Translations under genes and position numbers: made by a program | The notes under the pieces: model-generated | What the model was told of the DNA's origin: nothing | Database searches by the model: none | Seen by the model: only the letters and a program-made list of their open reading frames with translations | Shown here: positions 5,323 through 61,352 of the stretch, in pieces | How positions within the stretch are numbered: the stretch's first letter is position 1 | How the letters are laid out: the number at the start of each line of letters is the position of its first letter | Origin: Hydrurus foetidus | Lineage: Eukaryota | Direction: 5' to 3' | NCBI GenBank assembly: GCA_900617105.1 | Contig: UYFQ01000842.1 | Location: 1-64,000, forward strand | DNA: 64,000 nucleotides

Positions 5323-6791
5323 TTAACGCGGCAAGTCGCTGAAGCCCATCAGAAACTCGTCAACCGAACGCGCGGCCTGGCGGCCTTCGCGAATCGCCCA
5401 CACCACCAGGCTTTGGCCGCGGCGCATGTCGCCAGCTGCAAACACCTTGGGCACATTGGTCGCGTAGCCGCCAATGAACTCGGTGCTGGCTTTGGCGTTG
5501 CCGCGGGCATCCTTGTCCACACCGAACACCTCCAGCACGGTCGCCACGGGGTTCACAAAGCCCATGGCCAGCAGCACCAGATCGGCTTTGAGAACTTTGC
5601 GCTGCCTGGAACTCGACCATCTTGCCGTCCTTGAGTTCGACCTGCACTGTTTTCAGGCCTGTGATCTTGCCTTTTTCGCCGATGAATTCTTTGGTGGAAA
5701 TGGCGAATTCGCGCTGCAGCCTTCTTCGTGGCTGGAGCTGGTGCGCAGTTTGAGCGGCCAGTAGGGCCACGTCATGGGGCGGTTTTCTTCTTCGGGCGGC
5801 TGGGGCATCACCTCGAACTGGGTGACGCTGACCGCGCCGTGGCGGTTGCTGGTGCCTACGCAGTCGCTGCCGGTGTCGCCACCACCAATGACGATGACGT
5901 GTTTGCCATCGGCACGCAGTTGGCCCTTGACCTTGTCACCCGCGTTGACCTTGTTTTGCTGGGGCAGGAATTCCATCGCGAAATGGACGCCGTCCAGATC
6001 GCGCCCAGGGCACGGGCAGGTCACGCGACTGCTCGGAGCCGCCGGTCAGCAGCACGGCATCGAAGTCGGCTTTCAGTTGCTCAGCGCGAAATGGTTTCTT
6101 TGGCCCAGTTGGTGACTTTGGAGCCCTTGGGCATCGCGCCAATCAGCACGCTGGTGCGGATGGTGACACCTTCGGCGACCATCTGTTCAACGCGGCGGTC
6201 GATGTGGCTCTTTTCCATCTTGAAGTCGGGAATGCCGTAGCGCAGCAGGCCGCCCACGCGGTCGTTTTTCTCGAACAGCGTCACGTCGTGGCCGACACGC
6301 GCCAGCTGCTGGGCAGCGGCCATGCCCGCAGGGCCTGAGCCAACGATGGCGACTTTTTTGCCGGTCTTGTGCTTGGCAGGACGGGGCGTGACCCAGCCTT
6401 CAGACCAGGCGCGGTCGATGATGGCGTGTTCGATGGACTTGATGCCCACCGCATCGTCATTCACGTTCAGCGTGCAGGCCGCTTCGCAGGGTGCGGGGCA
6501 GATGCGGCCAGTGAACTCGGGGAAGTTGTTGGTGCTGTGCAGCGTGTCGATCGCGTTCTTCCAGTCCGCAGGCGCCTAGACCAGGTCGTTGAAGTCCGGA
6601 ATGATGTTGTTGACCGGGCAGCCGCTGTTGCAAAACGGTGTGCCGCAGTCCATACAGCGCGCGGCCTGCTTGTTGGCCTGCGCGTCGTCCAAGCCCACCA
6701 CAAACTCTTTGTAGTGCTTCAGACGTTCGGTAACGGGTTTGTAGCCCTCTTCGAGGCGCTCAAACTCCATGAAGCCAGTGACTTTTCCCAT
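5323..6791 (-). CDS. gltD: Glutamate synthase small subunit; reading frame broken in this sequence (probably sequencing errors)
   Basis: Consecutive fragments in different frames: [69 protein letters not shown]; at least 5 lesions. Confidence 0.9.
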
Positions 6792-6860: not shown

Positions 6861-9800
6861 TTATTTAGCCGGCGCTGCTTCTTTTTTTGTAGCAGCTGGG
6901 GCAGATTTGGCGGGGGCCTTGGCCGATTTGCGTGCATGGATCTCACCCAGAGCACGTTTGTACTCGTTGGGGAAGACCTTGACGAACTTGGCGCGCGAGG
7001 TGTCCCAGTTGTCCAGCAACTCGCGGGCGCGTTTGCTGCCAGTCCAGCGGTTGTGGTCTTCCAGCAGCTTCTTGAGCTGGGCTTCGTCGCTTTCGCCACG
7101 GTGCCACACCGCCTTGTCGACGCTGGCTTCCTGTTCCTTGGCGGTCAGCACCTTTTCCAGGCTGACCATCGCCGTGTTGCAGCGCTTGGCGAACTGGCCG
7201 TCTTCGTCGTACACATAGGCAATGCCGCCGCTCATGCCGGCGGCAAAGTTGCGGCCGGTCTTGCCCAGCACCGCGACCGTACCGCCGGTCATGTATTCGC
7301 AACCGTGGTCACCCGTGCCTTCCACCACCGCAGTGGCACCCGACAGACGCACCGCAAAACGCTCGCCGGCCACACCGCTCAGGTAAGACTCACCGCTGGT
7401 CGCGCCGTACATCACGGTGTTGCCGACGATGGTGTTGCGCACGGCTTCGCCTCTGAAGTCGATGCTGGGGCGCACGATGATGCGGCCACCCGACAAGCCC
7501 TTGCCGGTGTAGTCGTTCGCGTCACCAATCAGGTACATGGTGATGCCCTTGGCCAGAAGGCGCCAAAGACTGGCCGCCCGTGCCTTCGAGCTGGATGCGG
7601 ATGGTGTCGTCGGGCAAGCCTTGGGGATGCGCCTTGGTCACCGCGCCGGACAGCATCGCACCGACGAGCGGTTCACGTTGCGGGCCACTTCCATGAACTG
7701 ACTTTTTCGCCGCGCGAATGGCCGGCTGCGATTTCTCGATCAGCACGTTGTCCAGGCTTTTTCCAGGCCGTGGTCTTGGTTGGCGTCTGGTAACGGGGCA
7801 CGTCGGCAGGCACTTAGGCTGCGCAAACAGGCGGGCAAAGTTGAGGCCCTGGGCCTTCCAGTGTTCAATGCCCTTGCGGGTGTCCAGCAGGTCGGATCGG
7901 CCAATCAGGTCGTCAAACTTGCGGATGCCCAGCTGGGCCATGATCTGGCGCACTTCTTCAGCGATGAAGAAGAAATAGTTGACCACGTGCTCGGGCTTGC
8001 CGGAGAACTTGGCACGCAACGTGGGGTCTTGCGTGGCCACACCCACGGGACAGGTGTTCAGGTGGCACTTGCGCATCATGATGCAGCCTTCCACCACCAG
8101 CGGTGCGGTGGCGAAACCGAACTCGTCAGCGCCCAGCAGCGCGCCAATGGCGACGTCGCGGCCGGTCTTCATCTGGCCGTCGGCCTGCACACGAATGCGG
8201 CTGCGCAGGCGGTTCAGCACCAGGGTCTGCTGGGTTTCGGCCAGACCGATTTCCCAGGGGCTGCCCGCATGCTTGATGGACGACCAAGGGGATGCGCCGG
8301 TACCACCATCATGGCCGGCAATCACCACGTGGTCGGCCTTGCACTTGGCCACACCCGCAGCAATGGTGCCGACGCCGATTTCAGACACCAGCTTCACGCT
8401 GATGCCGGCGTGCGGCGCCACGTTCTTCAGATCGTGGATCAGCTGGGCCAAGTCCTCGATCGAATAAATGTCGTGGTGCGGCGGTGGGGAAATCAGACCC
8501 ACGCCGGGCACGGAGTGGCGTAGCTTGCCGATGTACTCGGACACCTTGCCACCGGGCAACTGGCCACCTTCACCAGGCTTGGCACCCTGGGCCATCTTGA
8601 TCTGGATCTGGTCCGCGCTGTTCAGGTACTCGGCAGTGACACCGAAGCGGCCGGACGCGACCTGCTTGATGCGCGAGCGCAGGCTGTCACCGGCATTCAT
8701 GGGGATGTCGACTTCCACCACGTCTTTGCCAATGATGTCGGCCATGGTCTGGCCCTGCTTGATCGGGATGCCCTTGAGTTCCTGGCGATAACGCGCAGGA
8801 TCTTCACCGCCTTCACCGGTATTACTCTTGCCGCCGATGCGGTTCATGGCAATGGCCAGTGTGGCGTGGGCTTCGGTGCTGATGGAACCCAGCGACATGG
8901 CGCCGGTGGCAAAGCGTTTGACGATTTCCTTGGCCGACTCCACTTCGTCCACCGGAATGGCTTTGGCGGGATCGATCTTGAACTCGAACAGGCCGCGCAG
9001 CGTCAGGTGGCGCTTGGATTGGTCGTTGATGATCTGGGCGTATTCCTTGTACGTGTTCCAGTTGTTGGCACGCGTGGAGTGCTGCAACTTGGCAATCGCA
9101 TCGGGCGTCCACATGTGTTCTTCACCGCGCACACGCCAGGCGTATTCGCCGCCCGCGTCCAGCGCGTTGGCCAGCACCGGGTCGTCGCTGAAGGCCGCCT
9201 TGTGCATACGGATGGCCTCTTCGGCGATCTCAAAAATGCCGATGCCTTCCACGCGGCTGGGCGTGCGGGTGAAGTACTTGTCGATGGTCTCGGTGTTCAG
9301 GCCAATGGCCTCGAACAGCTGGGCACCGCAGTAGCTCATGTAGGTGGACACACCCATCTTGGACATGATCTTGGAGAGGCCCTTGCCGATCGCCTTGATG
9401 TAGTTGTAGATGGCCTTGTCGGCACTCAGGTCGCCCGGCAGATCCTTGTGGATGCTGGCCAGCGTTTCCATCGCGAGGTAGGGGTGCACGGCTTCTGCGC
9501 CGTAACCCGCCAGCACGCCGAAGTGGTGCACTTCGCGGGCCGTACCGGTTTCGACCACCAGGCCGGCCGTGGTGCGCAGACCGGCACCGACCAGGTGCTG
9601 GTGAATCGCCGACAGGGCCAGCAACGCGGGGATCGCCACCTGGGTGGCAGACACGGCGCGATCGCTGATGATCAGGATATTTTTGCCACCCCTGATCGCG
9701 TCCACAGCTTCAGCGCACAGCGAGGCCAGCTTGGCTTCCACACCTTCGTGGCCCCAGGCCAGCGGGTAGGTGATGTCCAGCGTCTGGCTGCGGAACTTGC

Positions 9801-11586
9801 CCTGGGTGTGCTGCTCGATGTTGCGCAGCTTGGCCATGTCGGCAAAGTCCAGAATCGGCTGCGCCACTTCCAGCCGCATGGGCGGGTTGACCTGGTTGAT
9901 GTCCAACAGGTTGGGCTTGGGACCGATGAAGGACACCAGCGACATCACGATGGCTTCGCGGATCGGATCGATGGGTGGGTTGGTCACCTGTGCGAACAAC
10001 TGCTTGAAGTAGCTGTACAGCGGCTTGTTCTTGTCGCTCAAAACGGCCAGCGGGCTGTCGTTGCCCATGGAGCCAATGGCTTCTTCACCAGCGCTGGCCA
10101 TGGGGGCGATCAGGAACTTCAAGTCTTCCTGGGTGAAACCAAAGGCTTGCTGGCGGTCCAGCAAGGACACTTCGCTCTCAACGGCGGATGCGGGCTCACC
10201 GCCGCCTTGCACGTCGTCCAGTTTGATGCGCAGGTTCTCGATCCACTGCTTGTAGGGCTTGCTATTGGCGAGGTTGGACTTGAGTTCCTCGTCGTCAATC
10301 ATGCGGCCTTGTTCCAGATCGATCAGGAACATCTTGCCGGGCTGCAAGCGCCATTTGCGAACGATTTTGTTCTCGGGCACAGGCAGTACGCCGGACTCGG
10401 AACCCATGATGACGAAGTCGTCATCGGTGATGCAGTAGCGCGAAGGGCGCAGGCCGTTGCGGTCCAGCGTGGCGCCGATCTGGCGGCCGTCGGTGAACAC
10501 GATGGAGGCCGGGCCGTCCCACGGCTCCATCATCGCAGCGTGATATTCATAGAAGGCCTTGCGGCGCTCGTCCATGGTGGTGTGCTGTTCCCAAGGCTCG
10601 GGAATCATCATCATCACGGCCTGGCTGATGGGGTAGCCAGCCATGGTTAGCAGTTCCAGGCAGTTGTCGAACGTGGCGGTGTCGGACTGGTCGGCAAAGC
10701 TGATGGGGTAGAGCTTTTGCAGGTCAGCGGCCAGCACGGGGGACGACATCACGCCTTCGCGCGCTTTCATCCAGTTGTAGTTGCCCTTGACGGTGTTGAT
10801 TTCACCGTTGTGTGCCACATAGCGGTAGGGGTGGGCCAACGGCCACTCGGGGAATGTGTTGGTCGAGAACCGCTGGTGCACCAGGCCCAGCGCGGACACG
10901 CATCGCGCGTCTTCCAGGTCACGGAAGTAAACACCAACTTGGTCCGCCAGCAGCAGGCCCTTGTAGACCACGGTGCGGCTGGACATGCTGGGAACGTAGT
11001 ATTCCTTGCTGTGCGTGAGCTGCAGGTTCTGGATGGCGGCGCTGGCGGTCTTGCGGATCACGTACAGCTTGCGCTCCAGCGCGTCCTGCACGATCACATC
11101 GTTGCCACGGCCAATGAAGACCTGGCGCAGGATGGGTTCTTTTGCGCGCACGGTGGGCGACATGGGCATGTCACGGTTCACCGGCACATCGCGCCAGCCC
11201 AAGAACACCTGGCCCTCGGCCTTGATGGCGCGTTCCATCTCCTGCTCGCAAGCCAGGCGGGAGGCGTGTTCCTTGGGCAGGAAGATCATGCCTACGCCGT
11301 ACTCACCGGGTGGCGGCAGGGTCACGCCCTGGGCCGACATTTCTTCGCGGTAGAGCGCATCCGGCAACTGAATCAAGATACCCGCGCCATCACCCATCAG
11401 GGCGTCGGCTCCCACGGCACCCCGGTGGTCCAGGTTTTCGAGGATCTTGAGCGCGTTCTTGACAATGTCGTGGCTCTTTTCGCCGCGAATATGTGCCACA
11501 AAACCTACGCCGCACGCATCGTGCTCATTGGCGGAGGAATACAAACCGTGGTCTTTGAGGTGTTGGATTTCGGCTGCCGTGGTCAT
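6861..11586 (-). CDS. gltB: Glutamate synthase large subunit; 3' part frameshifted around 7520-7815
   Basis: EHDACGVG Ntn amidotransferase start, [39 protein letters not shown]; the GXGXG C-terminal domain continues in ORF 6861..7538. Confidence 0.95.
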
Positions 11587-11650
11587 GGCGCACTCCTGAA
11601 AATTACAGTGGGGCTCAAGAATACTGCAATGCAACAAGAGTGCCAAGCAC

Positions 11651-11713
11651 AATAAATGGGGTCAGATTCTAATTATTTGTTGAATGTTTTCATCGAGAAA
11701 TAAATGGGGACAT
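11651..11713. promoter_or_regulatory. Direct repeat AATAAATGGGG (x2) in the AT-rich spacer upstream of gltB and downstream of the Y1-HUH gene
   Basis: Identical 11-mers at 11651-11661 and 11699-11709, continuing as GGGGTCAG and GGGGACAT. Confidence 0.5.
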
Positions 11714-11765
11714 ATCAAAAATGATAGCTGCTAGCGCAATAAAATCGGGGGCTAGAGGCCGATTT
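11712..11765 (+). repeat. 55-bp palindromic repeat family, copy 1 (5' end eroded)
   Basis: ATATCAAAAATGATAGC-TGCTAGCGC-AATAAAAT-CGGGGGCTAGAGGCCGATTT; ends 5 nt from the stop codon of the Y1-HUH gene. Confidence 0.8.
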
Positions 11766-11770: not shown

Positions 11771-12463
11771 CTAGCTTTCGGCACTAGAGGGTCTGCCAGG
11801 GCTGCTTTTGCTGAGCCGCCGAGGGGTTTTCATTTGGAGTTCGGACAGAAAACCCTCCTCCCCCAAAGCCCAGCCGCGCAGCACCGCGTCCGTCAAAGCC
11901 GCCTGCTGGCCCTGGCTGATGCCGTTTTGCACCAATTGGGCGTACGCGGCTTCGCGAGCGAAAGGCGTGTTGCCAAGGTTCCAGACCAAGGGATGGGGGG
12001 TGATCAGTTTGTCGGCCTGCAGGCCACTGTAGTGGCCGTGGCTGGACCACTGGTAGTCGCACGCTTGCGCCACCAGGCCTGCGCGCACGGGGTTCAGGTC
12101 GATGTAGGCCATGCAGGCCAGCAGGTACCGATCGGTCTCGATCAGGGTGGATTTGTAGCGCCCTTCCCATAGCGTGCCCGTGCGCTGGTAGCGGTCGTTG
12201 AAGTAGCGCACATAGCTGCGACCTACCGACTGCATCATCTTTGGCAGGGCCTCGTCGGTGGATGGCGTGGCCAGCAGGTGAAAGTGGTTGTCCATCAGCA
12301 CGTAGGCGTGGAGGGATATGCCGAACTTGCGGGCGTTCTCGTAGAACAAAGCCTGCAAGGTCTGGAAGTCTGCCGTGTCCAGGCAAATGGGCTGGCGGTT
12401 ATTGCCCCGCTGAACAACGTGGTGCGGGTAACCCGCGAGGGTCAAACGGGGAAGGCGTGCCAT
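11771..12463 (-). CDS. Stand-alone Y1 HUH endonuclease / REP-associated tyrosine transposase (RAYT-like, IS200-superfamily fold)
   Basis: HVVQRGNNR, HAYVLMDNHFHLL (HUH = HFH), LWEGRY, YIDLNPVRAG (putative catalytic Tyr), YQWSS; no adjacent tnpB. Confidence 0.9.
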   Translation of the reverse strand: MARLPRLTLAGYPHHVVQRGNNRQPICLDTADFQTLQALFYENARKFGISLHAYVLMDNHFHLLATPSTDEALPKMMQSVGRSYVRYFNDRYQRTGTLWEGRYKSTLIETDRYLLACMAYIDLNPVRAGLVAQACDYQWSSHGHYSGLQADKLITPHPLVWNLGNTPFAREAAYAQLVQNGISQGQQAALTDAVLRGWALGEEGFLSELQMKTPRRLSKSSPGRPSSAES

Positions 12464-15746: not shown

Positions 15747-15801
15747 AAATTAGGCTATAGCCCCCATGGAATATGCGCCAGTAGCTATCATTAAAGTAGC
15801 A
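15747..15801 (-). repeat. 55-bp palindromic repeat family, copy 2
   Basis: Minus strand T-GCTACTTTAATGATAGC-TACTGGCGC-ATATTCCA-TGGGGGCTATAGCCTAATTT; fills 55 of the 60 nt between aroB and dgt. Confidence 0.88.
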
Positions 15802-27025: not shown

Positions 27026-27080
27026 TGCTATTGATTCAATAGCTGCTTGCGTAGCGTTGACGGGGGCTAGCGCCGCTTTT
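27026..27080 (+). repeat. 55-bp palindromic repeat family, copy 3
   Basis: T-GCTATTGATTCAATAGC-TGCTTGCGT-AGCGTTGA-CGGGGGCTAGCGCCGCTTTT; between convergent lysA and msrQ and overlaps the msrQ stop. Confidence 0.88.
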
Positions 27081-39549: not shown

Positions 39550-41322
39550 ATGCAGGCCCACGCTTTGTCACACCGCGCACCGACCTGGCCCTGGCTGGTC
39601 CTGGTGTTCTTGGCAGCCACCCTCTACCTATTCGGCCTGGGCAACTTTTACGCCCCCACCAACGGCGACGAGATGGTTTACATCCACATCGCCCGCATGA
39701 CGGCCGAGAGCGGCCACTGGCTGCCGCTGCAGTCTGAGCTGGTGGGTACGCGCAATACCAAACCGCCGCTGTTGATCTGGCAGGCCATGGTGGCCGGTGG
39801 CTGGGGGCAGCACTGGAGCCTGTTCGCATTGCGCCTGCCCAGCATCGCCTACACCTTTGCCACCACTGCCCTGCTGGCCTTCTTTGCGCACCGCATGGCG
39901 CCCGCACCCGGCAAGCTGCGCGTGGCCTGCATTGCTGCCACGCTGTACCTGCTGTACTTCTCTACCTTCCGCTACGGCAGGGTGTACCTGACCTCTGCGC
40001 CCGAGACCTTCTGGCTGGCGCTGCCCATGTGGTGGCTGCTGTGGCTGCACCTGCGTGCGCCTGCCGTGCAGTCAGCCGCCCTGCAACTGGGTTGGTTGGC
40101 CTACACGCTGATCGGTGCGGCCATGGGCCTGGGGGCCGCCTACAAGTCGTTTGCGCTGGTGGCGCCCACGGCGGCGGCGCTTTGGTGCGCGGTGCTGCTC
40201 AGCGAACCCTGGAGCTGGCGCAGCACGCTGCGCACCACCATAGGCGTGACCTGGAGCACGCTTCTGGGCCTGGGCATCTTCGCGCTGTGGTTTGTGCTGG
40301 ACCCCAACCCCGCCGAGGTGTGGCAGGAGTTTGTAATGGCCGAGAACGCCGGCAAGATGTCCAGCAGCCTGGGCTACTGGCAGGCCGCGCTGGTTGGCGC
40401 CTACCCCATGTGGACCCAGCTGCTGGCCTACCCGGCCAACGGCGGCCTGTTGGCGCTGCCGGTGCTGGGCTTTTGCCTGCACGCGCTGGGGCGCGGCTGG
40501 CGCCCGCGCCACTACGCACAACTCAGCCCTGCGCTCTGGGTGCTGCTGGCCTGGCTGGTGGTGTGGCTGGTGGTGTTCACCATCCCCAACCAGCGATCGG
40601 AACGTTATGTGATTCCAGCCATGCCAGCGCTGGCCATTGCCATGGCGCTTCTCTGGGACCGCCTCAACCGCTTCTGGTTTGCCGCCACGCTGCTGATCAC
40701 CGTGCCTGCACTGGCCATGCTGGGTCGCATTGGCTGGGTCATGGGCAGCCTGGGTATGGCAAGCCCGTTTGAAGTTGCTATGACTTTGATAGCTGCTGGC
40801 GCAGGATTGGCGGGGGCTACAGCCGGATTTATTCGATTTTCTTGGGCGCGCAACGCGACACTGCTAGTCTGCCTGGCCGTGTATGGCTGCTTTTCGCTGA
40901 TGGTGCAACCCCTCTCGGGTGACGAAGCGGGCTACAGCGCCGCCGTGCAAAGCCAGACGAAGGGCCTGCGCCTGGCCGTACCCAATGGTTTTACCGGCCA
41001 GTACGAGCGCTTTCACTTTGTGCTGCCCGGTGCGCGCATCACGCCCTATGACGCCGAAGGCCGCAACACCGGTGCGCTCTACCCCGAAATGCCGCCCGCG
41101 GAACGCCTGGAACGCTTGTTGAAGGAGTTTGACGCTGTCGTATGGCTGCAAGACGATTTGGATGAACAACCCAGCTGCCTGCCCCACTGCACGGTGGTGG
41201 ACCAACGCTGGCATGTGAAAAGCCGCCACAAAGACGGCGAAGTGACGCTGGACAACCTGTGGCAACCCCAGCAGTGGCTGTTCCGCCGGGAGTGGTTGTT
41301 GACGCCTGCCGCAGGCGGCTGA
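39550..41322 (+). CDS. ArnT/PMT-like (GT-C) undecaprenyl-dependent glycosyltransferase
   Basis: Polytopic membrane protein; GDE..Y..IAR.M, KPPLLIW, LRLPS, YKS, RYVIPAMP. Confidence 0.82.
   Translation: MQAHALSHRAPTWPWLVLVFLAATLYLFGLGNFYAPTNGDEMVYIHIARMTAESGHWLPLQSELVGTRNTKPPLLIWQAMVAGGWGQHWSLFALRLPSIAYTFATTALLAFFAHRMAPAPGKLRVACIAATLYLLYFSTFRYGRVYLTSAPETFWLALPMWWLLWLHLRAPAVQSAALQLGWLAYTLIGAAMGLGAAYKSFALVAPTAAALWCAVLLSEPWSWRSTLRTTIGVTWSTLLGLGIFALWFVLDPNPAEVWQEFVMAENAGKMSSSLGYWQAALVGAYPMWTQLLAYPANGGLLALPVLGFCLHALGRGWRPRHYAQLSPALWVLLAWLVVWLVVFTIPNQRSERYVIPAMPALAIAMALLWDRLNRFWFAATLLITVPALAMLGRIGWVMGSLGMASPFEVAMTLIAAGAGLAGATAGFIRFSWARNATLLVCLAVYGCFSLMVQPLSGDEAGYSAAVQSQTKGLRLAVPNGFTGQYERFHFVLPGARITPYDAEGRNTGALYPEMPPAERLERLLKEFDAVVWLQDDLDEQPSCLPHCTVVDQRWHVKSRHKDGEVTLDNLWQPQQWLFRREWLLTPAAGG
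40776..40830 (+). repeat. 55-bp palindromic repeat family, copy 4 (in frame inside the ArnT-like gene)
   Basis: T-GCTATGACTTTGATAGC-TGCTGGCGC-AGGATTGG-CGGGGGCTACAGCCGGATTT; encodes AMTLIAAGAGLAGATAGF. Confidence 0.85.
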
Positions 41323-41452: not shown

Positions 41453-41821
41453 TTAGTAGCGGTTGCCACCGCCGTAACCACCACCACCGCCGCCGCCGCC
41501 GTAACCACCACCGCCGCCTTCGCGACGACCACCACCGCCGCCACCGCCGCCGCCGAAACCACCTGTGCGGGGTTCCATAGGACGCGCTTCATTGACAACC
41601 ATATCGCGGCCGTCAACGTTCTTGCCGTTCATGCCGCCGATAGCCGCTTGGGCTTCTGCGTCGCTGGACATTTCCACAAAGCCGAAGCCTTTGGAGCGGC
41701 CGCTATCGCGGTCCATCATGACCTTGGCCGACGAAACGGTGCCAAATTCAGAGAAGTTTTGGTTCAGGGATTGGTCATCTACCGAGTAGGAGAGATTGCC
41801 GACGTAAAGTTTCTTGCCCAT
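41453..41821 (-). CDS. RRM RNA-binding protein with glycine-rich tail
   Basis: RNP2 LYVGNL, RNP1 KGFGFVEM, VVNEARP, GGGGYGG tail. Confidence 0.95.
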   Translation of the reverse strand: MGKKLYVGNLSYSVDDQSLNQNFSEFGTVSSAKVMMDRDSGRSKGFGFVEMSSDAEAQAAIGGMNGKNVDGRDMVVNEARPMEPRTGGFGGGGGGGGGRREGGGGGYGGGGGGGGYGGGNRY

Positions 41822-42167
41822 GGTGGGATCTTTCAAAAAGCGCTCGCAGTTCCAATGAACCACGTAACGCAGGGGGAATGACGGTCTTGGTTAAAAACCA
41901 TCGCATTCGGGAGAACCGGCGTCCATGCACCGGATCTGCATCCAGCGCTTGGGCCCAAGTCAGGTGTTTGGTCGGGAGAAAAAGGGGACCGGAGTAAAGC
42001 TCGCCGCTGGGGGAGTTTGACAACCGGGAGGGCCGAGACTATCGGCCAAAAAGGTGCGGAGGCGGCGTATGGGGTGCCGCAGACCGTGTCAGACTGCAAA
42101 CACTGCAAGGTAAGCAAAATGCAGCGTCACTCGCGATTTTACCCCTGATCCAGCGCGCAGGGGCCGA

Positions 42168-49049: not shown

Positions 49050-49050
49050 A

Positions 49051-49206: not shown

Positions 49207-50223
49207 ATGCCCCGTAAGTCCATCACCCTGAACGAAGTTGCCGCCGCGGCGGGCGTCTCGACCATGACCGCCTCCCGCGCAATCAACCACCAGACCGGCG
49301 TGTCGACCAAAACCCGCGAAGCCATCCTCAAACTGGCGGCGGACATGGGCTATTCGGCCAACCGCAGCGCGCAAAAGTTGTCTACCGGGCGCAACCGCGT
49401 GATTGGCGTGCTGGCCGCAGAGCTGGACAACCCCTTCATCGGCGCGCTGGTGTCCGGCGCGGTGCGCGCGGCGGCCGTGGCGGGGCATGAGGTGCTGATC
49501 TATTCACTGGTAGACCACGCCGGGCACCCCACGGGCAATGTGATGGATTTGTTGCAGCAGTTCACCGACGGAGTGATCGCCGTGTTGCCCTACCAGTTTG
49601 GCTTTGTAGAGCAGCTCTCCGTGGCCATGCACCCGGTCATCACGATTGACCACCACAGCGAGCATTCCGAATTTCCGTCCGTCGCGGCCGACAGCTACGG
49701 CGGCGCCCGCAAGGCCCTGCAACACCTGGCCGACTTGGGGCACACACGCATCGCCTTCCTCACAGGTGACGAAGCCCTGGGGTCGGCCCGGGACCGGCAC
49801 CGCGCCTACGACGATGCCGTCAAACTGATGGACCTGGAGGCCGATGCAACCCTGGTGCTGCAGGGCGACTATTCGCTGCGCGGCGGCCAGGAGGCCGGCC
49901 ACAAGCTGCTCAAGATGCGCAAAAAACCCACCGCTGTTTTTGCTTGCAACGACATGAGCGCGCTAGGCATGATGTCCGTGCTGCAGTCTGCCGGCCTGCG
50001 CGTGCCGGAAGACATTTCCATCGTCGGGTTCGACGACCTGCCCATTGCCAGCCAGATTCACCCCGGCCTGACCACGGTCCGCCAGCCCATTGGCGAAATG
50101 GGGCGCGCCGCGGTCAATGCGTTGCTGACCCTGATTGCCGGCATGGAAGTCGCCAGCGCAGAAATCGTCCTGCCCACCAGCTTGGTCGTGCGCGAATCCA
50201 CCATGGCATTGAAGAAGAAATAA
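49207..50223 (+). CDS. LacI-family transcriptional regulator
   Basis: TLNEVAAAAGVSTMTASRAIN helix-turn-helix; VPEDISIVGFDD; LTTVRQP. Confidence 0.96.
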   Translation: MPRKSITLNEVAAAAGVSTMTASRAINHQTGVSTKTREAILKLAADMGYSANRSAQKLSTGRNRVIGVLAAELDNPFIGALVSGAVRAAAVAGHEVLIYSLVDHAGHPTGNVMDLLQQFTDGVIAVLPYQFGFVEQLSVAMHPVITIDHHSEHSEFPSVAADSYGGARKALQHLADLGHTRIAFLTGDEALGSARDRHRAYDDAVKLMDLEADATLVLQGDYSLRGGQEAGHKLLKMRKKPTAVFACNDMSALGMMSVLQSAGLRVPEDISIVGFDDLPIASQIHPGLTTVRQPIGEMGRAAVNALLTLIAGMEVASAEIVLPTSLVVRESTMALKKK

Positions 50224-50272
50224 GGCTCTAGCCCGCGTGGAATATGCGCCAGCAGCTACTTATTTAATAGCG
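50218..50272 (-). repeat. 55-bp palindromic repeat family, copy 5
   Basis: Minus strand C-GCTATTAAATAAGTAGC-TGCTGGCGC-ATATTCCA-CGCGGGCTAGAGCCTTATTT; contains the stop codons of both convergent neighbours. Confidence 0.88.
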
Positions 50273-53944: not shown

Positions 53945-56900
53945 CTACTGCATGGTCAGGTTCAGCTCGGCCTGGGGCTTGGCGTCTGCGGCACGGCCGG
54001 TGGTCTTGGTGGCACCCAGGAACAGGCGCTCGGCCGGCACCTTCTGCGTGGCCAGGTAGTCCTTCACCACCACGCCGCGTTGCAGCGCCAGTTCGCGGAT
54101 GGTGTCGCCGCTGACCGTGATGTTGGCCAGCAGCAGGGCCTCCATGTCGGGCACCTCGATATCCTTGGTCAGCCCTACCAGGTTGCGCGGCTTGGTGATG
54201 TCCGCGCGACGGTACACGGCGCGCAGCAGCGCGGACATTTCTTCCGGCGTGTAGCCCGCCACGGTTGCGGCGTCTTCCCCCTGGCCGCTGGCGCGACGCC
54301 GCTTCTCGGCCAGCAGCAGGCCCCTGAGTTTCTCGCGCTTGACGGCTTCGCGTTCGGCCTCCAGCTGGGCCTGACCCACCACGGTGAGCGTGAGTGCGGG
54401 GCGATCCACCAGCGCCTTGGCCACCTTGTCCAGGCCGGTGCGCGCAGCATCGCTGAGCACGCCGCTGCCAGGGGCAAACGCCACCGTGCTGAGCTCTGAA
54501 CTGCTGCCACCACCAAAGGCATTGGCCAGCAAGCTGAAGGGCGAGGTAATGGCCTTGACCACCAGGTTGGTGATGACTTTCCAGATTACCGGGCCGATGC
54601 GGAACTGCGGGTCGTTCAGTGAGCCGCTGATGGGCAGATCCAGGTCGATCACGCCGTTGCGGTCGGCCAGCAGGGCCACCGCCAGTTTCACCGGCAGGCT
54701 GTTGGGCGCTCCCTCCACCTTGTCGCCAAAGCTCAGTTGGTTCAGCACCAGCTTGTTGCTGGCGGTGAGCTGACCGTCGGGTTGCACCGCGTAGCGCACG
54801 TCCACACTGAGCTTGCCGCGTTCGATGCCGTAGCCCGCGTACTTCACGGCGTAAGGCGAGAGCGGCGGCAGCTCCAGGTCGCGCACCTTGCCTGCAATGT
54901 CCAGCGCCAGCGGCTTGGCCAGCGGATTCAGCTTGCCCGTGATCTCCAGCGAGGCCGTACCTTCGGCGCGACCGCGCAGTTCGAGGTCGGCCAGCTGCAC
55001 CACGCCACTGCTGGGCTGGCTGGAGAACTGGCTGAGCTTGCCGGTCAGGTCGCTCAGGTCGGCCGTGTAGTTGGGCTGGATAAAGCGGTCCGAGAACAAC
55101 ACCTTGCCGTTCACCAGGCTGATGGGGCCTACGGTGATGATGGCGTCGGGTGCTGCATGGGTGGGGCCTGCCGCTGCGGCCGCTGCGGCAGGCCCGGCAG
55201 GCGCGGGCGTCTTCATCAGTTCCTGCAGGTTCAGGCGCCCCGCGGGACTGACGATGAGGCGGGCATAGAAATCGGACAACGCGGCCTCGCGCACCGCCAC
55301 GCGGGTGGCGGCGCCTGGCACCATGACCAGGTCGATGCCGGGCACGTTGAGTGCCTTCCAGCTCAGCAGCTCTTCGGCAAAGCCACCGCTTGGGCCCTGT
55401 ACGGTGTTGGCGCGGAAGTCGTCCAGCTGGGCATCGCCCTTGAGCGCCATGTCAGGCCCGTTGGGTGTGCTGGCAAAGCGCAGCTGACCCTTGAAGCTGG
55501 CATCGGCGCGCAGCACGTCCAGGTTGATCTGGTCGGCAAAGTAGGGGACCAGCGCATGCAGCGGCAAATCCTGCAGCGCCACACTGCCCTGGGCCTGCAC
55601 CGGGTCCCAGGCGGCGGTGCCCTGGTAACGCAGGCTGCCGGCCTCGGCCTGGCCCGATTTCACGCGCGCGCTCAGCGTGAGCAGCACCGGCTTTTTGCCA
55701 TCCAGCTGCGCGTCCTTCAGCAGCAGGTTCAGTGCCGACACCTCCAGCCGCACCGGGCGGTTGTGGGTGCGGTCGGACACCACGGCGCTGGCGTCCTGCA
55801 CATTCAGTTCGCCCAGTGCCACCTTCCAGGGCGGCGTTGCTACGGTGGCTGGTTTGTCCTTTGCGGGCTTCAGCCAGCTCTGGAAAATCCACTGCCCATC
55901 GGCCTCGCGCCGCACACCGGAGCTGGCACGTTGCAGCAGCACCTTGCCCACGCGGGCGGTGCGCGCCGTGGGGTCGGCCTGTACATCAGTGATCTCCAGC
56001 AGCTTGAACTGCGGCAGGTCGGACGACGAAGGGCCGTTGGCCGTGCGGGCGATGCGATCGCCCGCCACGGGCTGGGTGGCCACCAGGCCTGCATCGCGCA
56101 CAGCCAGGCGCTGCGCCGTGACCGTGACCTGCTCGCCTTGCCAGCTGGCGCCCAGTTGGGCATCCAGCAGGCCGCGCACCGCAGGCTCCAGAAACTGCGC
56201 CGTATAAGGCGCGGCCAGTGCCAGCGACATGTCATTCACCGTGGCCTGGACTCGGCCCTGCTGCAGCGTGCCGTCCAGTTTGAAGGCCAGGCGCGCCGCC
56301 GTGCCCTTGCCCGGCACCGTGGCCGAGCCTTCGGCAGTGACCGGCTTGTCCATGGGCCATTGCAGGCCCTGGGCGGTGAACGCCACGTCCGCCAGGGCCA
56401 GCTTGGCCGCAGGCTGGGTCTGCTGGTCCAGCCAGTCCACCGTGCCACCCGTCAGGGCCAGGCGCTCCAGCTGCAGCGTCCAGGGTGCGGGGGCCGCTGC
56501 GGCAGGCGTTTTAGCATCTTTTTGGCCTGTAGCCCCCGTGGAATATGCGCGAGCAGCTCCTTTTTTAGGAGCACTCTCCGCTGGCTTGCCACTGGCCAGG
56601 TCCAGATTCAGGTGACCGTTGCGGGCACGTACCACCTGCAGGTGCGGGTTGGTGACCGTGATGGCAGAGAGCTTGACGATCTGCTCCAGCGGTCGCACAT
56701 CGGCCACCTCGGTACGCACCGTGTCTACCGCCAGCAGCGGCGCACCTGCCGCATCGGCCACGGCGAGCTGGCTGACCGTCACCACGCCCGACAGGCTGAC
56801 CGAGGCTTGCGGGGTCTGCACAAAACCGATCTTGAGCTCGGCGTTCACCACCGCGCTTTGCGGTTTTACTGGCAGGCTGGCTGGCAAATAGGACAGGTAC

Positions 56901-57613
56901 GGTTTCAAGTCGAACTGACTGATCTTGAGCTGCGCCTCGCCCTTGCGGGTCTGGGCAAACGGCGTGCCCTGGGCCGCCGTGTCAAACGCGCTGCCATTGA
57001 GCACAAAGGCCAGGCGCGGCGACACCAGCACATCGCGCTGCGAATCAAAGTTGCTGAGGAAGGGGACGCTGATCTGCAGATCCCGCAGCGTGTGCTGGCG
57101 TGCCGGTCCCTTGGCGCTCTGGTCTGCGTAGTCCACACTGCCCCCGCTAAGCGTGACGTTGTACACCGCAAAGCGCGGTAGCGGTCCGGTCGGCGTGTCC
57201 GACGGCGCGCTCAGACGTTGCAGGATGTCGTCGATGTCATAGCGGCCGTCACCCAGGTGGGTGAGCTGCAGCTTGGGGCCTTCCACCGCCACTGCATCGA
57301 CCACGGGCGCCAGGCGCAGCAGCGACTGCAGCTCGGCATCCACATAGATGCGCGCCACGCTGAACTGAGGGCCACTGCCATCGGCCTTGGCCACGGCCAG
57401 GTCACGCAGCGTAAGCTCCAGTGACCAGGGCGCAAAGTCCACCGCCCCCACCGTGACCGTGCGGCCCAACAGCGCCGAAAGCCGGGTCTGGGCCTGGCTT
57501 TTAAGCAGCGGCGGCACCGCCAGCCAGGCCAGGACCCAAAGCAGCAGCAGTCCCCCGGCCGTCCAGGCGATACGGCGCAACCAGGTCAGCGTACGTGGGG
57601 AGAAAGAGGTCAT
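53945..57613 (-). CDS. DUF748 domain-containing protein (AsmA-like) with OmpA-like C-terminus
   Basis: N-terminal TM; repeated beta-rich units; SPYAVKYAGYGIERGKL; LPVKLAVALLADRNGVIDLDLPISGSLNDP. Confidence 0.88.
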   Translation of the reverse strand: MTSFSPRTLTWLRRIAWTAGGLLLLWVLAWLAVPPLLKSQAQTRLSALLGRTVTVGAVDFAPWSLELTLRDLAVAKADGSGPQFSVARIYVDAELQSLLRLAPVVDAVAVEGPKLQLTHLGDGRYDIDDILQRLSAPSDTPTGPLPRFAVYNVTLSGGSVDYADQSAKGPARQHTLRDLQISVPFLSNFDSQRDVLVSPRLAFVLNGSAFDTAAQGTPFAQTRKGEAQLKISQFDLKPYLSYLPASLPVKPQSAVVNAELKIGFVQTPQASVSLSGVVTVSQLAVADAAGAPLLAVDTVRTEVADVRPLEQIVKLSAITVTNPHLQVVRARNGHLNLDLASGKPAESAPKKGAARAYSTGATGQKDAKTPAAAAPAPWTLQLERLALTGGTVDWLDQQTQPAAKLALADVAFTAQGLQWPMDKPVTAEGSATVPGKGTAARLAFKLDGTLQQGRVQATVNDMSLALAAPYTAQFLEPAVRGLLDAQLGASWQGEQVTVTAQRLAVRDAGLVATQPVAGDRIARTANGPSSSDLPQFKLLEITDVQADPTARTARVGKVLLQRASSGVRREADGQWIFQSWLKPAKDKPATVATPPWKVALGELNVQDASAVVSDRTHNRPVRLEVSALNLLLKDAQLDGKKPVLLTLSARVKSGQAEAGSLRYQGTAAWDPVQAQGSVALQDLPLHALVPYFADQINLDVLRADASFKGQLRFASTPNGPDMALKGDAQLDDFRANTVQGPSGGFAEELLSWKALNVPGIDLVMVPGAATRVAVREAALSDFYARLIVSPAGRLNLQELMKTPAPAGPAAAAAAAGPTHAAPDAIITVGPISLVNGKVLFSDRFIQPNYTADLSDLTGKLSQFSSQPSSGVVQLADLELRGRAEGTASLEITGKLNPLAKPLALDIAGKVRDLELPPLSPYAVKYAGYGIERGKLSVDVRYAVQPDGQLTASNKLVLNQLSFGDKVEGAPNSLPVKLAVALLADRNGVIDLDLPISGSLNDPQFRIGPVIWKVITNLVVKAITSPFSLLANAFGGGSSSELSTVAFAPGSGVLSDAARTGLDKVAKALVDRPALTLTVVGQAQLEAEREAVKREKLRGLLLAEKRRRASGQGEDAATVAGYTPEEMSALLRAVYRRADITKPRNLVGLTKDIEVPDMEALLLANITVSGDTIRELALQRGVVVKDYLATQKVPAERLFLGATKTTGRAADAKPQAELNLTMQ
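56519..56573 (-). repeat. 55-bp palindromic repeat family, copy 6 (in frame inside the DUF748 gene)
   Basis: Minus strand T-GCTCCTAAAAAAGGAGC-TGCTCGCGC-ATATTCCA-CGGGGGCTACAGGCCAAAAA; encodes APKKGAARAYSTGATGQK. Confidence 0.87.
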
Positions 57614-57764
57614 GGCAAAACGGTTCCGTAAAGGCTTCAACAGGGCAGCAGCCTGCCTGGCTGTGATGGTAACGGGCTGCAGCGACAACCACAGGCTTTG
57701 ATCTGCATCAAGTGCGCAGGCCCATCACCGTGGGAAGCTTGCGCAGCCACTTCGGAGACTCGCC

Positions 57765-58362: not shown

Positions 58363-59724
58363 CTAGCGCGTCAGCTTGAGCCCCAGCACCTGCTGGGCCA
58401 CACAGCGCCCCTGCACCTTGCCGCTATCGATCGCGCTGCGGAAGTGGATACCCGCATACATGCGTGAGATGGCGGCCTCATCGGCAGCCGCGCGGAAGCT
58501 GGCAAAGGTGCGTGGCCCCCAACCGCGGTCATTGTGGGTGTTGTCGGTGAAAGGCTTGTTGGCTCCAAAGACGGCATCCAACACATCCGACGCAGCACCC
58601 GACTGCACCGAATGGCCCGAGGGAAATTCCGGAAAGTTCGGCGTGTGCATCAGCGTGGGCACCCAGTTGCTGTCGATCACCAGTTGCACATAGGTGACCG
58701 GGCGCAACAGGCTCACGGTGTACTTGGTTTTCCAGCCCGCAATAAAGGCGTCGGCCATGGCGATATTCAGGCGCACCATGGTGTGGGCCGCCTGGGCCAG
58801 GCTGGCATTTTGCTGCTTCAGCAGGTCGTTGGCGATATAGAGCCAGTGACCCGCGGGTGTGGGGGTCTTGAGAGGGTCATCCGCCCAGTACAAGGCGACC
58901 TGGCGCTGCTCTTGTGTGGTCTTGTTGCTCACCTGGTAGACCTCGTTAGCCTCCTTGTAAAAGGCCGAGCCGGGGCTCTCGGAGTACGGCGGTGGCAGCG
59001 GTGCGGCGCAGGCTGTGCTGGTTTTCAACACAAAGGGCCGCACCTCACCCCACCAAGGCAACAGCGCCGGCCCAAACGCCGGTGGCGTGGCCGACCACTG
59101 GCCTTCGCCACTGGGTGGCACATAGTTCTGCTGGTTGCGGCGCAGCGGGCCCCAGGCCTCGTGCCCGCCGTCGGTGCGGGCCCAGGTCATGATGGCCATG
59201 GCCATGAGCTTGCCAAAGGTCTCCGACCGGTTGGTAATCTCGGGCGTCACCGTATTGGGGTCAAAGTCTTGGCTGTATTTGAGCGGCAGGCTGCGCTCCA
59301 GCAGGTCGATGCGGGCCTTGTTCTCGGCACTGGCCGTGGGGAACATCATGCGCGTCATGGTGGCCATGGAGGCATTGGCCACGGTGGGCCAATGCAGCAC
59401 CTCATCAGGCTGGGCCCAGGGCAGCGACTGCAGCTCGTTGAGCTGGCCGGCCAGGCTCTGGTTCTGCGGCATGCCGGGCACTACCGACTCGTACAGCGTG
59501 AGCCCCAGGTAGGCAAACGCACGCGAGGCCACGGGGGGGCTGAAGCCAGGCGTCTGCTGCGTGAGCAGCAGCGCCAGGCTGAACCACTCGGTGGCCACAC
59601 TGGCGCTGAAGGCGCTGGCCGGGCTGGCCACGGGCGTGGCCTGCTGGGCGTGTACAGGCAGCAACAAGGCGCTGGTCCAGGCGCAGGCCCACGCCAAGCA
59701 CAAAGAAAGCAATCGGGTTTTCAT
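58363..59724 (-). CDS. Secreted vanadium-dependent haloperoxidase-like protein (PAP2 superfamily)
   Basis: Signal peptide; KYTVSLLRP (KX6RP), FPSGHS, SRMYAGIHF; TPAGHW; ATG overlaps the upstream stop. Confidence 0.85.
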   Translation of the reverse strand: MKTRLLSLCLAWACAWTSALLLPVHAQQATPVASPASAFSASVATEWFSLALLLTQQTPGFSPPVASRAFAYLGLTLYESVVPGMPQNQSLAGQLNELQSLPWAQPDEVLHWPTVANASMATMTRMMFPTASAENKARIDLLERSLPLKYSQDFDPNTVTPEITNRSETFGKLMAMAIMTWARTDGGHEAWGPLRRNQQNYVPPSGEGQWSATPPAFGPALLPWWGEVRPFVLKTSTACAAPLPPPYSESPGSAFYKEANEVYQVSNKTTQEQRQVALYWADDPLKTPTPAGHWLYIANDLLKQQNASLAQAAHTMVRLNIAMADAFIAGWKTKYTVSLLRPVTYVQLVIDSNWVPTLMHTPNFPEFPSGHSVQSGAASDVLDAVFGANKPFTDNTHNDRGWGPRTFASFRAAADEAAISRMYAGIHFRSAIDSGKVQGRCVAQQVLGLKLTR

Positions 59725-61352
59725 GGGGCTTTCCAATTCACAAGACCTTGGGGGCTCACGGTGTAGAAGGCGTCCGCCTTGGCGGGCATCCATTCGCTCC
59801 AGCCGCCGTGTGGCCACTGCACGCGCAGCTGGGCGGTTGCGGCGCTACCCAGGCCAAAGTGCATCCAGCCCATATGGCCACTGGCGTGGCCACCACCCAC
59901 GGTGAGTTCCTGGCGGATGACGGGGGCGGTGTCGGCCTCGCCCAGCTTCACCTCTACCCACGCGCCCACCGCATCGCGGTTACCGCTGGGCTGCTGCAGG
60001 CGCAGCTGCAACCAGTGGCCCGCGCCCGCCGCGGCACCGCTGCTGGTCTGGCGCCAGAGCTGGGCTTTGTCCCAGCGGTTGACCACCAACACGTCCAGCA
60101 GGCCATCGCCATTCAGGTCCACCACCATACCGCCACGCCCGCGCTTGAAGCTGGCCAGGCCGGCCTGGCTACCGGCTTCTACAAAATTGCCGTCTGCCTT
60201 TTGCAGCAGCAGGTTGTTGGGGTCCAGCATCGCAAAGTCGGGCATGGTGGACACATTGCCTTTGACCACAAACAGGTCCGTCAGGCCATCGTTGTTCATG
60301 TCCACAAACTGTGCATGCCAGGCGGTGCTGGGGTGTACATCGCCGCCCACATAGGGCCGGTGCGCGGTGACGCCACGCTTGAAGGCCCTATCGGTGAAGC
60401 GCGGCTGGGTGGCGCCGGCTTCCAGCGTCTGCAGCTTGTTGTCGGACATGCTGGTCAGAAACACGTCCGGATAGCCATCGCCATTGAGGTCGTGGCTGGC
60501 AATGCCCATGCCCCAGATCTGCAGCGGCTTCCAGCCCTGGGCCGCGGTGTAGAGCGTTGGCGCCGCACCCGCGGGCACTTGCCAGAGCTGCTCCTCTCCA
60601 CCCTTGTAGTACTCGCGGTCATTGCTCACACGTAGCGCAGCGGTGCCCGAACGGTTCCAGTCGGAGAACAGCATGGATAGCGCGCAGTGGCCGGGCACCA
60701 GAGGCGTGGCGGGCTGGTAGCCGCCACCCTCTTTGGGCCGCAGCAGCAGGCCCGGCGTGCAGCTACCCCAAGGGAACTCGGGCTTGTTGCGGTCGGTGTA
60801 AGTGCCGATGGCCAGCGTGGGCCAGCTTTGGCCCTGCTCCCAGGTGGCAGAAAACGCCGTGTGCCAGCCGTTGCCGGTGTGAATATTCCAGGCGTCGTTG
60901 GCCTTCTCAAACTTGCACTGGCCCAAGCCCCTGAACACCTGTACCTCGCCCACGCGCAGCACGACCAAGTCAACCTGGCCATCGCCATCAATGTCCAGCG
61001 GGTAGGCGCCAATGGCATTGGTCAGCTCCAGGCCCGAACGCTCCTCCTGCAGCTTGAGCGCGCCGCCGCGGGCACTGCGGTTGCGCAGAAACTTGGCCTT
61101 GTTCACGCCTGCGGTGACATAGACCTCGGGCAAGCCATCACCATCGCAGTCGAAGCTGGCCACACCGCCGCCCACCATGTATTCACCCTCCCCTTCAAAG
61201 CGGCTTTGCAGGCCCGCCGTGTCGGTTTCTTCGACAAAACGGGGGATGGCGGGAAGCGGTGCGGGCTCGGCAGCATGCACCAGAGGCGCCAGGTACAGCC
61301 CGAGCAGTAGCAAGCCCGGTCGGGCCCGCAAACGAAGTGGCAGGAATTTCAC
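59721..61352 (-). CDS. CRTAC1-family protein (FG-GAP repeats plus ASPIC/UnbV domain)
   Basis: Signal peptide; repeated DxDGDG / DLNGDG Ca-binding loops; C-terminal NRDAVGA.V..GGG..HFGLG..V.WP. Confidence 0.88.
   Translation of the reverse strand: MKFLPLRLRARPGLLLLGLYLAPLVHAAEPAPLPAIPRFVEETDTAGLQSRFEGEGEYMVGGGVASFDCDGDGLPEVYVTAGVNKAKFLRNRSARGGALKLQEERSGLELTNAIGAYPLDIDGDGQVDLVVLRVGEVQVFRGLGQCKFEKANDAWNIHTGNGWHTAFSATWEQGQSWPTLAIGTYTDRNKPEFPWGSCTPGLLLRPKEGGGYQPATPLVPGHCALSMLFSDWNRSGTAALRVSNDREYYKGGEEQLWQVPAGAAPTLYTAAQGWKPLQIWGMGIASHDLNGDGYPDVFLTSMSDNKLQTLEAGATQPRFTDRAFKRGVTAHRPYVGGDVHPSTAWHAQFVDMNNDGLTDLFVVKGNVSTMPDFAMLDPNNLLLQKADGNFVEAGSQAGLASFKRGRGGMVVDLNGDGLLDVLVVNRWDKAQLWRQTSSGAAAGAGHWLQLRLQQPSGNRDAVGAWVEVKLGEADTAPVIRQELTVGGGHASGHMGWMHFGLGSAATAQLRVQWPHGGWSEWMPAKADAFYTVSPQGLVNWKAP

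Follow-up and report, generated by a model that had tools for sequence, protein, structure and literature searches.

We analyzed a 64,000-nucleotide (nt) stretch of DNA (positions 1 to 64,000 of contig UYFQ01000842.1, assembly GCA_900617105.1, filed under Hydrurus foetidus; this whole stretch is called the window below) and found that positions 56516 to 56572, on the minus strand within a gene for a DUF748/AsmA-like protein, are a sense, in-frame member of an interspersed repeat of about 50 nt. The copy is likely a single ancient insertion that predates the split of the species sharing it, and what has been kept there is likely the letters of the DNA themselves, not a hairpin and not the encoded peptide. 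We consider it slightly better than an even bet, judging from the sequence patterns described below, that a trans-acting factor recognizes the repeat as a DNA signal and that the peptide is a passenger.

A repeat copy inside the DUF748 gene

The host open reading frame (ORF), 53945..57688 on the minus strand, encodes 1,247 amino acids (aa). Its product matches Pfam DUF748 with an E value of 4.9e-278 and 925.8 bits (cut-off 50), and its N terminus matches AsmA with 55.8 bits (cut-off 29.8) and YhdP with 48.8 bits (cut-off 46), so that the protein has both the domain above the curated cut-off and the AsmA-type N terminus that define the DUF748 family. The nearest relative that we found is encoded in Rhodoferax saidenbachensis (locus L001, 88% protein identity), and the host family is Comamonadaceae. 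Our material for comparison consisted of 77 loci encoding relatives of the protein and 400-kb stretches of three related genomes.

The copy encodes APKKGAARAYSTGATGQKD and reads, in minus-strand letters, GCTCCTAAAAAAGGAGC TGCTCGCGCA TATTCCA CGGGGGCTA CAGGCC AAAAAGAT. It is made up of a 49-nt core (56524-56572) and an A-rich tail (56516-56523). The core begins with a palindrome, GCTCCT-A5-AGGAGC (palindrome 1; 56556..56572, arms 56567-56572 and 56556-56561), and also holds two conserved blocks on the same strand: TGCTCGCGCA at 56546..56555, which occupies columns 24-33 of our alignment A2 and is mostly at least 90% conserved, and CGGGGGCTA at 56530..56538, which holds a "dialect" position that varies by lineage (G in this copy, C in other lineages). 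Against a profile of the seven copies in the window, the DUF748 copy scores an E value of 4.7e-11, and its 26-nt core has one match in the window with at most three mismatches, compared with none in 100 shuffles. The original prediction, made from the letters of the window, had placed a repeat copy in frame within a Pro/Ala-rich linker of this gene, and both the ORF translation and the profile score bear this out.

The element corresponds to residues 373-391 of the host protein, in a linker predicted to be unstructured. An AlphaFold2 model of residues 250-560 (67 aligned sequences; mean predicted local distance difference test score, or pLDDT, of 88) shows it as coil (model residues 124-142), with a block pLDDT of about 51-69, flanked by confident beta-rich blocks.

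Abundance and placement of the repeat

Seven copies were found in the window by profile search, one more than had first been counted. The same approach (E<0.01) gave 52, 59, and 58 copies in the 400-kb samples of the three related genomes, that is, 169 copies in 1.2 Mb, a density of about 1 per 7 kb from which we estimate roughly 500 copies per genome. For searches of whole genomes, an 84-copy alignment was made into a sequence-only covariance model, which returned at least 150 matches at E<=1e-12 in each of the related genomes G001 and G003. Across the family, 21 of 61 sampled genomes had a match at E<=1e-6; about 11 of the 61 had at least 59 of the 84 candidates scored, and 40 had none. The element measures 49-57 nt, has a mean GC content of 54.5%, and occurs as singletons.

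A single 67-nt query (E<=1e-3, limited sensitivity) matched one of 72,556 plasmid records and none of 50,697 phage records. No Rfam family matched at gathering score, and the five sub-threshold matches (E up to 10) all lay away from the copies. Conserved terminal repeats of the kind expected for a MITE were not visible in the flank columns of A2 (target-site duplications, the other MITE hallmark, were not searched for), and by eye there was no pattern of replichore polarity among the 46 G003 matches listed.

Although predicted genes cover 86-92% of the DNA, 106 of the 169 copies are not wholly inside one. Where both neighbors of an intergenic copy were called (n=105), 39 copies lie tail-to-head, 38 tail-to-tail, 23 head-to-tail, and 5 head-to-head; the 3' end of a gene thus adjoins 100 of the 105, and only 5 lie between divergent starts. 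Placement is stable between species. The window is collinear with G001 over about 57 kb at 83-88% nucleotide identity, six of its seven copies are at the collinear place and on the same strand in G001, and the collinear DNA contains no extra or missing copies.

The abundance of the repeat is also visible in two public DNA runs that contain the window (X1 and X2; positions 55800-57300), where the summed depth is about 2000 in the repeat versus 38 in its flanks. The depth of the core is about 50 times that of the flanks, and short-read contigs end inside the repeat. Two oligo-dT RNA runs filed under the same species label had no read on the stretch, a negative that does not count as a test. In practice, short-read assemblies break at the repeat, which also misleads gene callers in the vicinity of gene ends and is open to misreading as a recent insertion or a structured RNA.

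The DUF748 copy is old

The same segment recurs, with site and frame unchanged, in many of the 77 loci, although the flanking protein is only 40-50% identical; this occupancy across many related species suggests that it was probably inserted before they split. In a FastTree tree of 68 full-length DUF748 proteins, the element at this site (site 1) occurs only inside one 51-row clade (support 96). Of these rows, 24 have a strong element (at least 25 bits), 12 have a weak one, and 15 have none that is detectable; it is present in none of the 17 rows outside. A minimum of six changes accounts for its presence on the tree, which fits one gain followed by several decays. Measured from one conserved anchor to the next, the linker is a median of 36 aa long (range, 32 to 44) with a strong element and 22 aa without one, being exactly 20 aa in many of the latter rows, a shortening of about 14 aa. 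The linker indel expected among orthologs is therefore seen relative to distant orthologs but not relative to near ones, and the view of the DUF748 copy as a recent insertion has to be given up, as the site is occupied across the 51-row clade. In four species, a second sense copy in the same frame (frame 0) lies in the next Pro/Ala-rich linker, at about residues 845-880 (L032 at 7478, L036 at 12467, L043 at 12614, and L044 at 12575), and maps to one gain on the tree.

Conservation at the level of DNA

For the 24 orthologs that have a strong copy, we compared codon use in the element (408 codons) with codon use elsewhere in the gene (29,066 codons). GC content at third codon positions (GC3) is 0.316 inside the element versus 0.781 in the rest of the gene, and Ala is encoded by GCT in 80 of 116 cases inside versus 418 of 4196 outside. 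The share of the majority base at codon positions 1, 2, and 3 is 0.80, 0.80, and 0.84 inside the element versus 0.78, 0.84, and 0.65 elsewhere in the gene, and amino acid conservation is 0.67 inside and 0.72 outside. The low GC3 and the best-kept third positions point to an old insertion that has not drifted toward the codon usage of its host.

Intact DUF748 motifs are almost confined to genomes in which the repeat family is present. We scored 44 loci, each with 15 kb or more of flank, for family copies in the flanks and for a strong DUF748 copy. The two occur together at 18 loci and are both absent at 22; a strong copy alone is found at one locus and flanking copies alone at three (Fisher p=2.8e-8). 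Six phylogenetically independent pairs could be drawn, of which four to five go the same way and none goes the opposite way. In L009 and L017, the first dozen codons of the segment are still recognizable, in GC-rich codons, and the remainder is gone.

Dialects common to orthologous copies

The dialect base is the fifth base of CGGGGGCTA, at core position 39. It is G in all 54 copies from G001 and C in 52 of 62 copies from G003 and 53 of 60 from G005, and in 18 of 20 genomes the DUF748 copy carries the majority base of its own genome. All five orthologously placed copies in G005 have C at sites that have G in sister genomes: these are the copies in both DUF748 linkers, the N-terminal antisense copy in the membrane-protein gene described below, a copy in a gene of about 920 aa, and the copy adjacent to the gene resembling those of REP (repetitive extragenic palindromic)-associated tyrosine transposases (RAYTs). 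Likewise, three of three orthologously placed copies in L037 have C. Mapped on the tree, the shift to C has at least two origins, one in the L012 clade and one in L043.

The change from G to C is not compensated on the opposite arm, where column 31 stays G. Independent neutral mutation cannot produce such a concerted pattern, which requires either a common selective agent or biased conversion. Any conversion would have to be confined to the block, since in their loops and spacers the orthologous copies retain a signal of vertical descent.

Coding copies use both strands, with one favored frame in each

Genes in the three 400-kb samples were called with our own codon-usage caller. By these calls, 63 of the 169 copies are wholly inside genes; the number falls to 50 under a strict rule, which requires a gene score of at least 30 and a distance of 60 nt or more from both gene ends. 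We compared the frames of the 63 coding copies with the number of the 106 noncoding copies open in the same frame and with the count expected if stop codons were the sole filter (worked by hand). In the sense orientation, frame 0 has 27 coding copies (91 noncoding copies open; 19.0 expected), frame 1 has 3 (43 open; 9.0 expected), and frame 2 has 5 (8 open; 1.7 expected). In the antisense orientation, the counts are 2 for frame 0 (4 open; 0.8 expected), 24 for frame 1 (86 open; 18.0 expected), and 2 for frame 2 (69 open; 14.4 expected). The two orientations are thus used about equally, one frame is dominant in each, and both favored frames yield Ala-rich peptides of small residues. The shortfall in antisense frame 2, which is open in 69 of 106 noncoding copies and used by only 2 of 63 coding ones, indicates a filter beyond stop codons.

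The original prediction holds in part here. Its statement that the consensus carries stops in the two other sense frames was confirmed on the consensus, and ORF translations agree that the DUF748 copy and a second copy in the window (40777-40825) are both sense and in the same frame. Its proposal that insertions are filtered to one open frame fits the 27 of 35 sense coding copies that are in frame 0, but stops alone fail to explain the counts in antisense frame 2. Coding copies are not confined to the sense orientation, as had been supposed: antisense frame 1 is nearly as populated as sense frame 0 in the samples tallied, and a third coding copy in the window itself (6877-6925, plus strand) runs antisense in gltB.

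What may keep the motif

Taken together, the conserved blocks with free spacers between them, the lack of codon periodicity and of covariation, the use of both strands, the dependence on the repeat family, and the shared dialects suggest a trans-acting factor. On this account, a chromosomal interspersed repeat of 50-57 nt would have been inserted once, long ago, into the disordered linker of the DUF748/AsmA-like protein, and the copy would have persisted since then as a DNA signal for a host factor that recognizes its sequence, the 19 encoded residues being a tolerated passenger. The specificity of the factor would differ between lineages, and selection by the factor, or short-patch biased conversion, would keep coding and noncoding copies alike. 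A further step, that the roughly 500 copies are working sites of one host system whose specificity has drifted, dragging along all sites including those in genes, seems doubtful to us; candidates for such a system would be an uptake or recombination machine, a nucleoid-organizing factor, or a domesticated Y1 transposase.

Several points weigh against this account. Recognition of the motif by a protein is read from sequence patterns alone. After phylogenetic correction, the association between presence of the family and an intact copy lies above 0.05 (median p of about 0.06), and the tree comes from FastTree alone. Some of the coding and noncoding labels may be wrong, above all near gene starts. 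The dialect argument draws on two independent transitions and has two exceptions, L014, where the copy has T and most others have G, and L047, where it has G in a genome with a 3:1 majority of C, and short-patch gene conversion between copies could give concerted change without any function. Finally, the copies fold more stably than shuffles (median RNA minimum free energy of -13.3 versus -9.9 kcal/mol), so a hairpin may have a role in single-stranded DNA or RNA for them; we attribute the lower energy to the dyad symmetry built into the conserved blocks.

If the DNA motif is what selection or conversion keeps, about one-third of the copies impose a noncoding constraint on protein sequence, and linkers, tails, and membrane-helix-like segments have been added to genes family-wide, for example to gltB and to the gene of this AsmA-like envelope protein. 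Were the roughly 500 sites to serve one host system, coding sequence across a bacterial family would be constrained by a genome-wide DNA signal. The genome-wide shift from G to C in orthologous copies offers a handle for finding a factor that covaries with the dialect.

Alternative explanations

An unlikely alternative to a factor-read signal is a selfish element of the REP type, or of the REPIN type (REP doublets forming hairpins), mobilized by a RAYT-like Y1 transposase, in which case the DUF748 copy would be a neutral in-frame insertion that nothing maintains and that survives only through the tolerance of the linker. The window does contain a RAYT-like gene of the Y1 (IS200-type) transposase class at 11771..12463 on the minus strand (Pfam Y1_Tnp, 6.9e-13), which scores 78.4 bits against the NCBIfam model for REP-associated tyrosine transposases (NF047646), just below the cut-off of 80. 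As RAYTs are, it is single-copy and syntenic in relatives. A partial copy of the repeat without the 5' arm (11712..11760, plus strand) is found 10 nt beyond the stop codon of this gene, on the upstream side of the gltB start, and is kept in four of five relatives (L078-L081). The high copy number and mainly extragenic placement of the repeat, mostly at gene 3' ends, are also those of REP sequences. REP sequences have a conserved GTAG/CTAC tetranucleotide at the end of their palindrome, and the repeat has a near-invariant RTAGC (A2 columns 20-23), but this forms one arm of palindrome 1 and is internal, not terminal.

Other observations fit a REP-type element less well. Of 61 family genomes, 58 have the RAYT-like gene and only 21 have the repeat; the repeat adjoins only one flank of the gene, that copy is truncated, and chance would put a copy at the 3' end of about one gene in every 8 to 10 (an estimate from 33 noncoding copies and 374 genes). 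No inverted doublet, the REPIN form, occurs among the 169 copies, and the only two neighboring pairs within 300 nt are both direct. The window and G001 show no turnover of copies. With age, a neutral insertion should come to resemble the host in codon usage, yet the element still has a GC3 of 0.32 and is best conserved at its third positions, and neutral copies would not track dialect shifts.

As far as the cited accounts describe them, a link to abundant flanking words exists for only some of the RAYT groups (PMC5581495), and the REP, bacterial interspersed mosaic element (BIME), and REPIN-RAYT systems of Enterobacteria, Pseudomonas, and Stenotrophomonas (PMC3116915, PMC3337134, PMC3479197, PMC5581495) resemble the present repeat in having hundreds of short dyad-symmetric copies per chromosome that are mostly at gene 3' ends, vertically inherited, and chromosome-bound, together with a single-copy RAYT-like gene with an adjoining copy. 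Unlike those systems in the same accounts, our repeat has neither a covarying hairpin nor inverted doublets, and about one-third of its copies are inside genes and in frame, a number (63, or 50 by the strict rule) that is unusual for REPs. It also differs in its patchy occurrence beside a RAYT-like gene that is nearly universal in the family, in being static between species at about 85% nucleotide identity, and in the concerted dialect shifts of its orthologous copies. These observations give no support to the RAYT-like gene as mobilizer, and we regard it as no more than a candidate mobilizer or recognizer of the repeat.

Less probable still is a "molecular drive" like that of DNA uptake signals, in which a machinery of transformation or recombination favors alleles with the motif and replaces others by homologous recombination. 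This would account for conserved sites, in-gene copies, and lineage dialects, and the conservation of sequence and not of structure, the occurrence of both orientations, the copies in tolerated frames of genes, the joint switching of dialect by orthologous copies, the patchy distribution across the family, and the near-absence from plasmid and absence from phage records all agree with it. Known uptake signals, to which the uptake signal sequences (USS) of Pasteurellaceae also belong, have a core of about 10-12 nt and occur about once per kb. The present motif is a 50-nt composite found once per 7 kb, and its coding copies are true insertions of 16-17 codons, not build-ups by point mutation. 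The DNA uptake sequences (DUS) of Neisseriaceae likewise have a sequence-conserved motif chromosome-wide, in both orientations and in tolerated gene frames, with lineage dialects common to orthologous sites; our element differs in being much longer and about ten times sparser and in having arrived as an insertion. For Neisseriaceae, uptake-sequence dialects are known (PMC3630211).

The reading of the original prediction was that an RNA or single-stranded DNA hairpin is under structural selection, with compensatory changes, and that coding copies are limited to one open sense frame. We now hold this to be very improbable and largely refuted. Perfect 6-bp stems of differing sequence do exist (GCTCCT/AGGAGC in the DUF748 copy and GCTATT/AATAGC in the copy at 27027), also between the two sense coding copies of the window, and the fold stability and the predominance of frame 0 among sense copies speak for the idea. 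The alignments do not. Over the five stem pairs of the 84 copies, 76.7% of cells are paired, compared with 78.0 +/- 1.0% in shuffles, and 470 of 500 shuffles pair at least as often as the real alignment. Three of the pairs are essentially invariant, and the two variable ones are unpaired in 47 and 34 of the 84 copies. In the 169 copies, an unbiased set, the two variable pairs form at the rates expected under independence (103 times versus 109.2 expected and 121 times versus 122.9 expected), and C at position 4 and G at position 14 are unlinked (3, 18, 37, 111; Fisher p=0.41). All five pairs are formed in only 51 of the 169, and a sixth pair does no better. Covariation is thus absent in both sets, and RNAalifold found no consensus structure in the repeat copies.

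The pairing of GCTCC with GGAGC is found only in six DUF748 orthologs of one clade (the window, L001, L002, L004, L006, and L007), while most other orthologs have GCTCC opposite ATAGC or GTAGC, unpaired; it is a single event on one side of an already changed stem. The dialect change from G to C occurred without a compensating partner, copies lie in both orientations relative to transcription, also inside genes, and Rfam has no match at any copy. A second palindrome, TNGCGCA-N9-TGCGCNA, shows no covariation either. As a side observation, this second palindrome is perfect in many G005 copies (TTGCGCA-N9-TGCGCAA), and in G001 it is unpairable at the same place, with G opposite G.

Selection on the peptide itself as a functional linker motif of DUF748 proteins, with the likeness to the repeat being secondary, is very improbable: APK..AARADSTGA.GQKD is recognizable across orthologs, but amino acid conservation is below third-position nucleotide conservation, rare GCT and AT-ending codons are retained, hundreds of copies of this DNA lie outside genes or, on either strand, in genes of no relation to this one, and in lineages that lack the family (L009, L017, and the L029 clade) the segment has been lost or has drifted.

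Relation to described repeats

The closest analogue for the in-frame copies appears to be the Rickettsia palindromic elements (RPEs), of about 150 bp, which are inserted in frame in ORFs and are found in Rickettsia only (PMC10969869). By that description, the two have in common in-frame insertion in unrelated genes that adds a conserved peptide, a large share of copies in ORFs, and insertions kept across species. The present element would not be a member, however, being set apart from the RPE description by its size of 49-57 nt and its occurrence in Comamonadaceae, by its use of both strands with one frame each, and by DNA that is better conserved, including at third positions, than the peptide (PMC10969869).

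A motif pair listed by Tong, Schliekelman and Mrazek in 2017, ATAGCT(N)22CAAAAG, is probably the same family, unnamed. That report gives 125 copies in Polaromonas naphthalenivorans (101 between genes, 18 within genes, and 6 that overlap the end of a gene), with many pairs between convergent genes and close to gene ends, and it names Rhodoferax ferrireducens as the genome with the most pairs among 569 scanned (PMC5217627). The ATAGCT core and its occurrence in Comamonadaceae are shared with our repeat; the spacing of the pair does not map exactly onto the Rhodoferax consensus, and family identity is inferred for that reason (PMC5217627). The account is a listing of pentamer pairs, in its available text without an element model, orthology, coding-frame analysis, or function (PMC5217627). 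Apart from this motif pair, the published accounts that our searches returned contain no description of the element.

The Beta-proteobacterial repeat element (BRE) family of Bordetella and Comamonadaceae was considered and rejected. Its elements, as reported, likewise occur in Betaproteobacteria including Polaromonas and Rhodoferax, with some copies wholly within coding sequences, but they are about 90 bp long with 69% GC and form tandem arrays at 4-29 copies per genome (PMC3110155), whereas ours are shorter, lower in GC, singletons, and about 500 per genome, and hence a different family.

Other copies in the window

Besides the DUF748 copy, two of the seven copies in the window are inside genes, and four are in short spacers at gene ends (11712, 15752, 27027, and 50223). 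The second sense copy in frame 0 (40777-40825, plus strand) encodes AMTLIAAGAGLAGAT in ORF 39550..41322 (plus strand), the gene of a 590-aa membrane protein that adjoins a GtrA-family gene. There the copy yields a hydrophobic, transmembrane-like segment, AMTLIAAGAGLAGATAG, and the site is also occupied in L007, L013, L014, L037, and L072. Some orthologs of this membrane protein have an extra copy in antisense frame 1 over the first 25 codons or so, which form an N-terminal hydrophobic segment (L007 at 19619, L014 at 23665, L028 at 20513, L037 at 22647, and L043 at 20362).

The third coding copy (6877-6925, plus strand), found by profile, is degenerate and runs antisense, in frame 1, to the part of gltB that encodes the C-terminal tail; G001 has a copy at the corresponding place. 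The surrounding ORF, 6861..7538 on the minus strand, was identified as gltB by Pfam GXGXG (6e-60). In the window (6081-11652), gltB is split into two overlapping minus-strand ORFs, 7522..11652 and 6861..7538, and gltD is apparently split too (6576..6791 and 6081..6464); these splits are either frameshifts or assembly errors.

Among the intergenic copies, that at 15752..15800 (minus strand) begins 2 nt past the aroB stop codon and fills a 60-nt spacer. The copy at 27027..27075 (plus strand), "copy 3" of the original prediction, lies between convergent genes and begins 3 nt past a stop codon. The copy at 50223..50271 (minus strand) also lies between convergent genes, exactly at the right edge of an 8-kb segment with six genes (42161-50261) that is not collinear with G001; in the R. 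saidenbachensis genome, about 11 kb of other DNA stands in its place. A gene for a LacI-family regulator (49207..50223) is within this segment. We dropped the grouping of the 50223 copy into an orthologous set "after the LacI-type gene," as the flanking genes differ between the window and L002-L005.

Some further repeated sequences were noted. In L047, two copies (4367 and 4439; 49-nt cores, 23 nt apart) lie in direct orientation, both in antisense frame 1 of one 593-aa gene. In the window, a run of GCCACCGCC-type repeats (41465-41558) inside ORF 41453..41863 (minus strand) encodes on that strand a Gly-rich tail, and by eye the product resembles a glycine-rich RNA-binding protein. Four 53-nt direct repeats, 60-72% alike, lie at 60067-60995 inside the gene 59721..61352 (minus strand), where they correspond to internal protein repeats with a DxDGDG-type motif.

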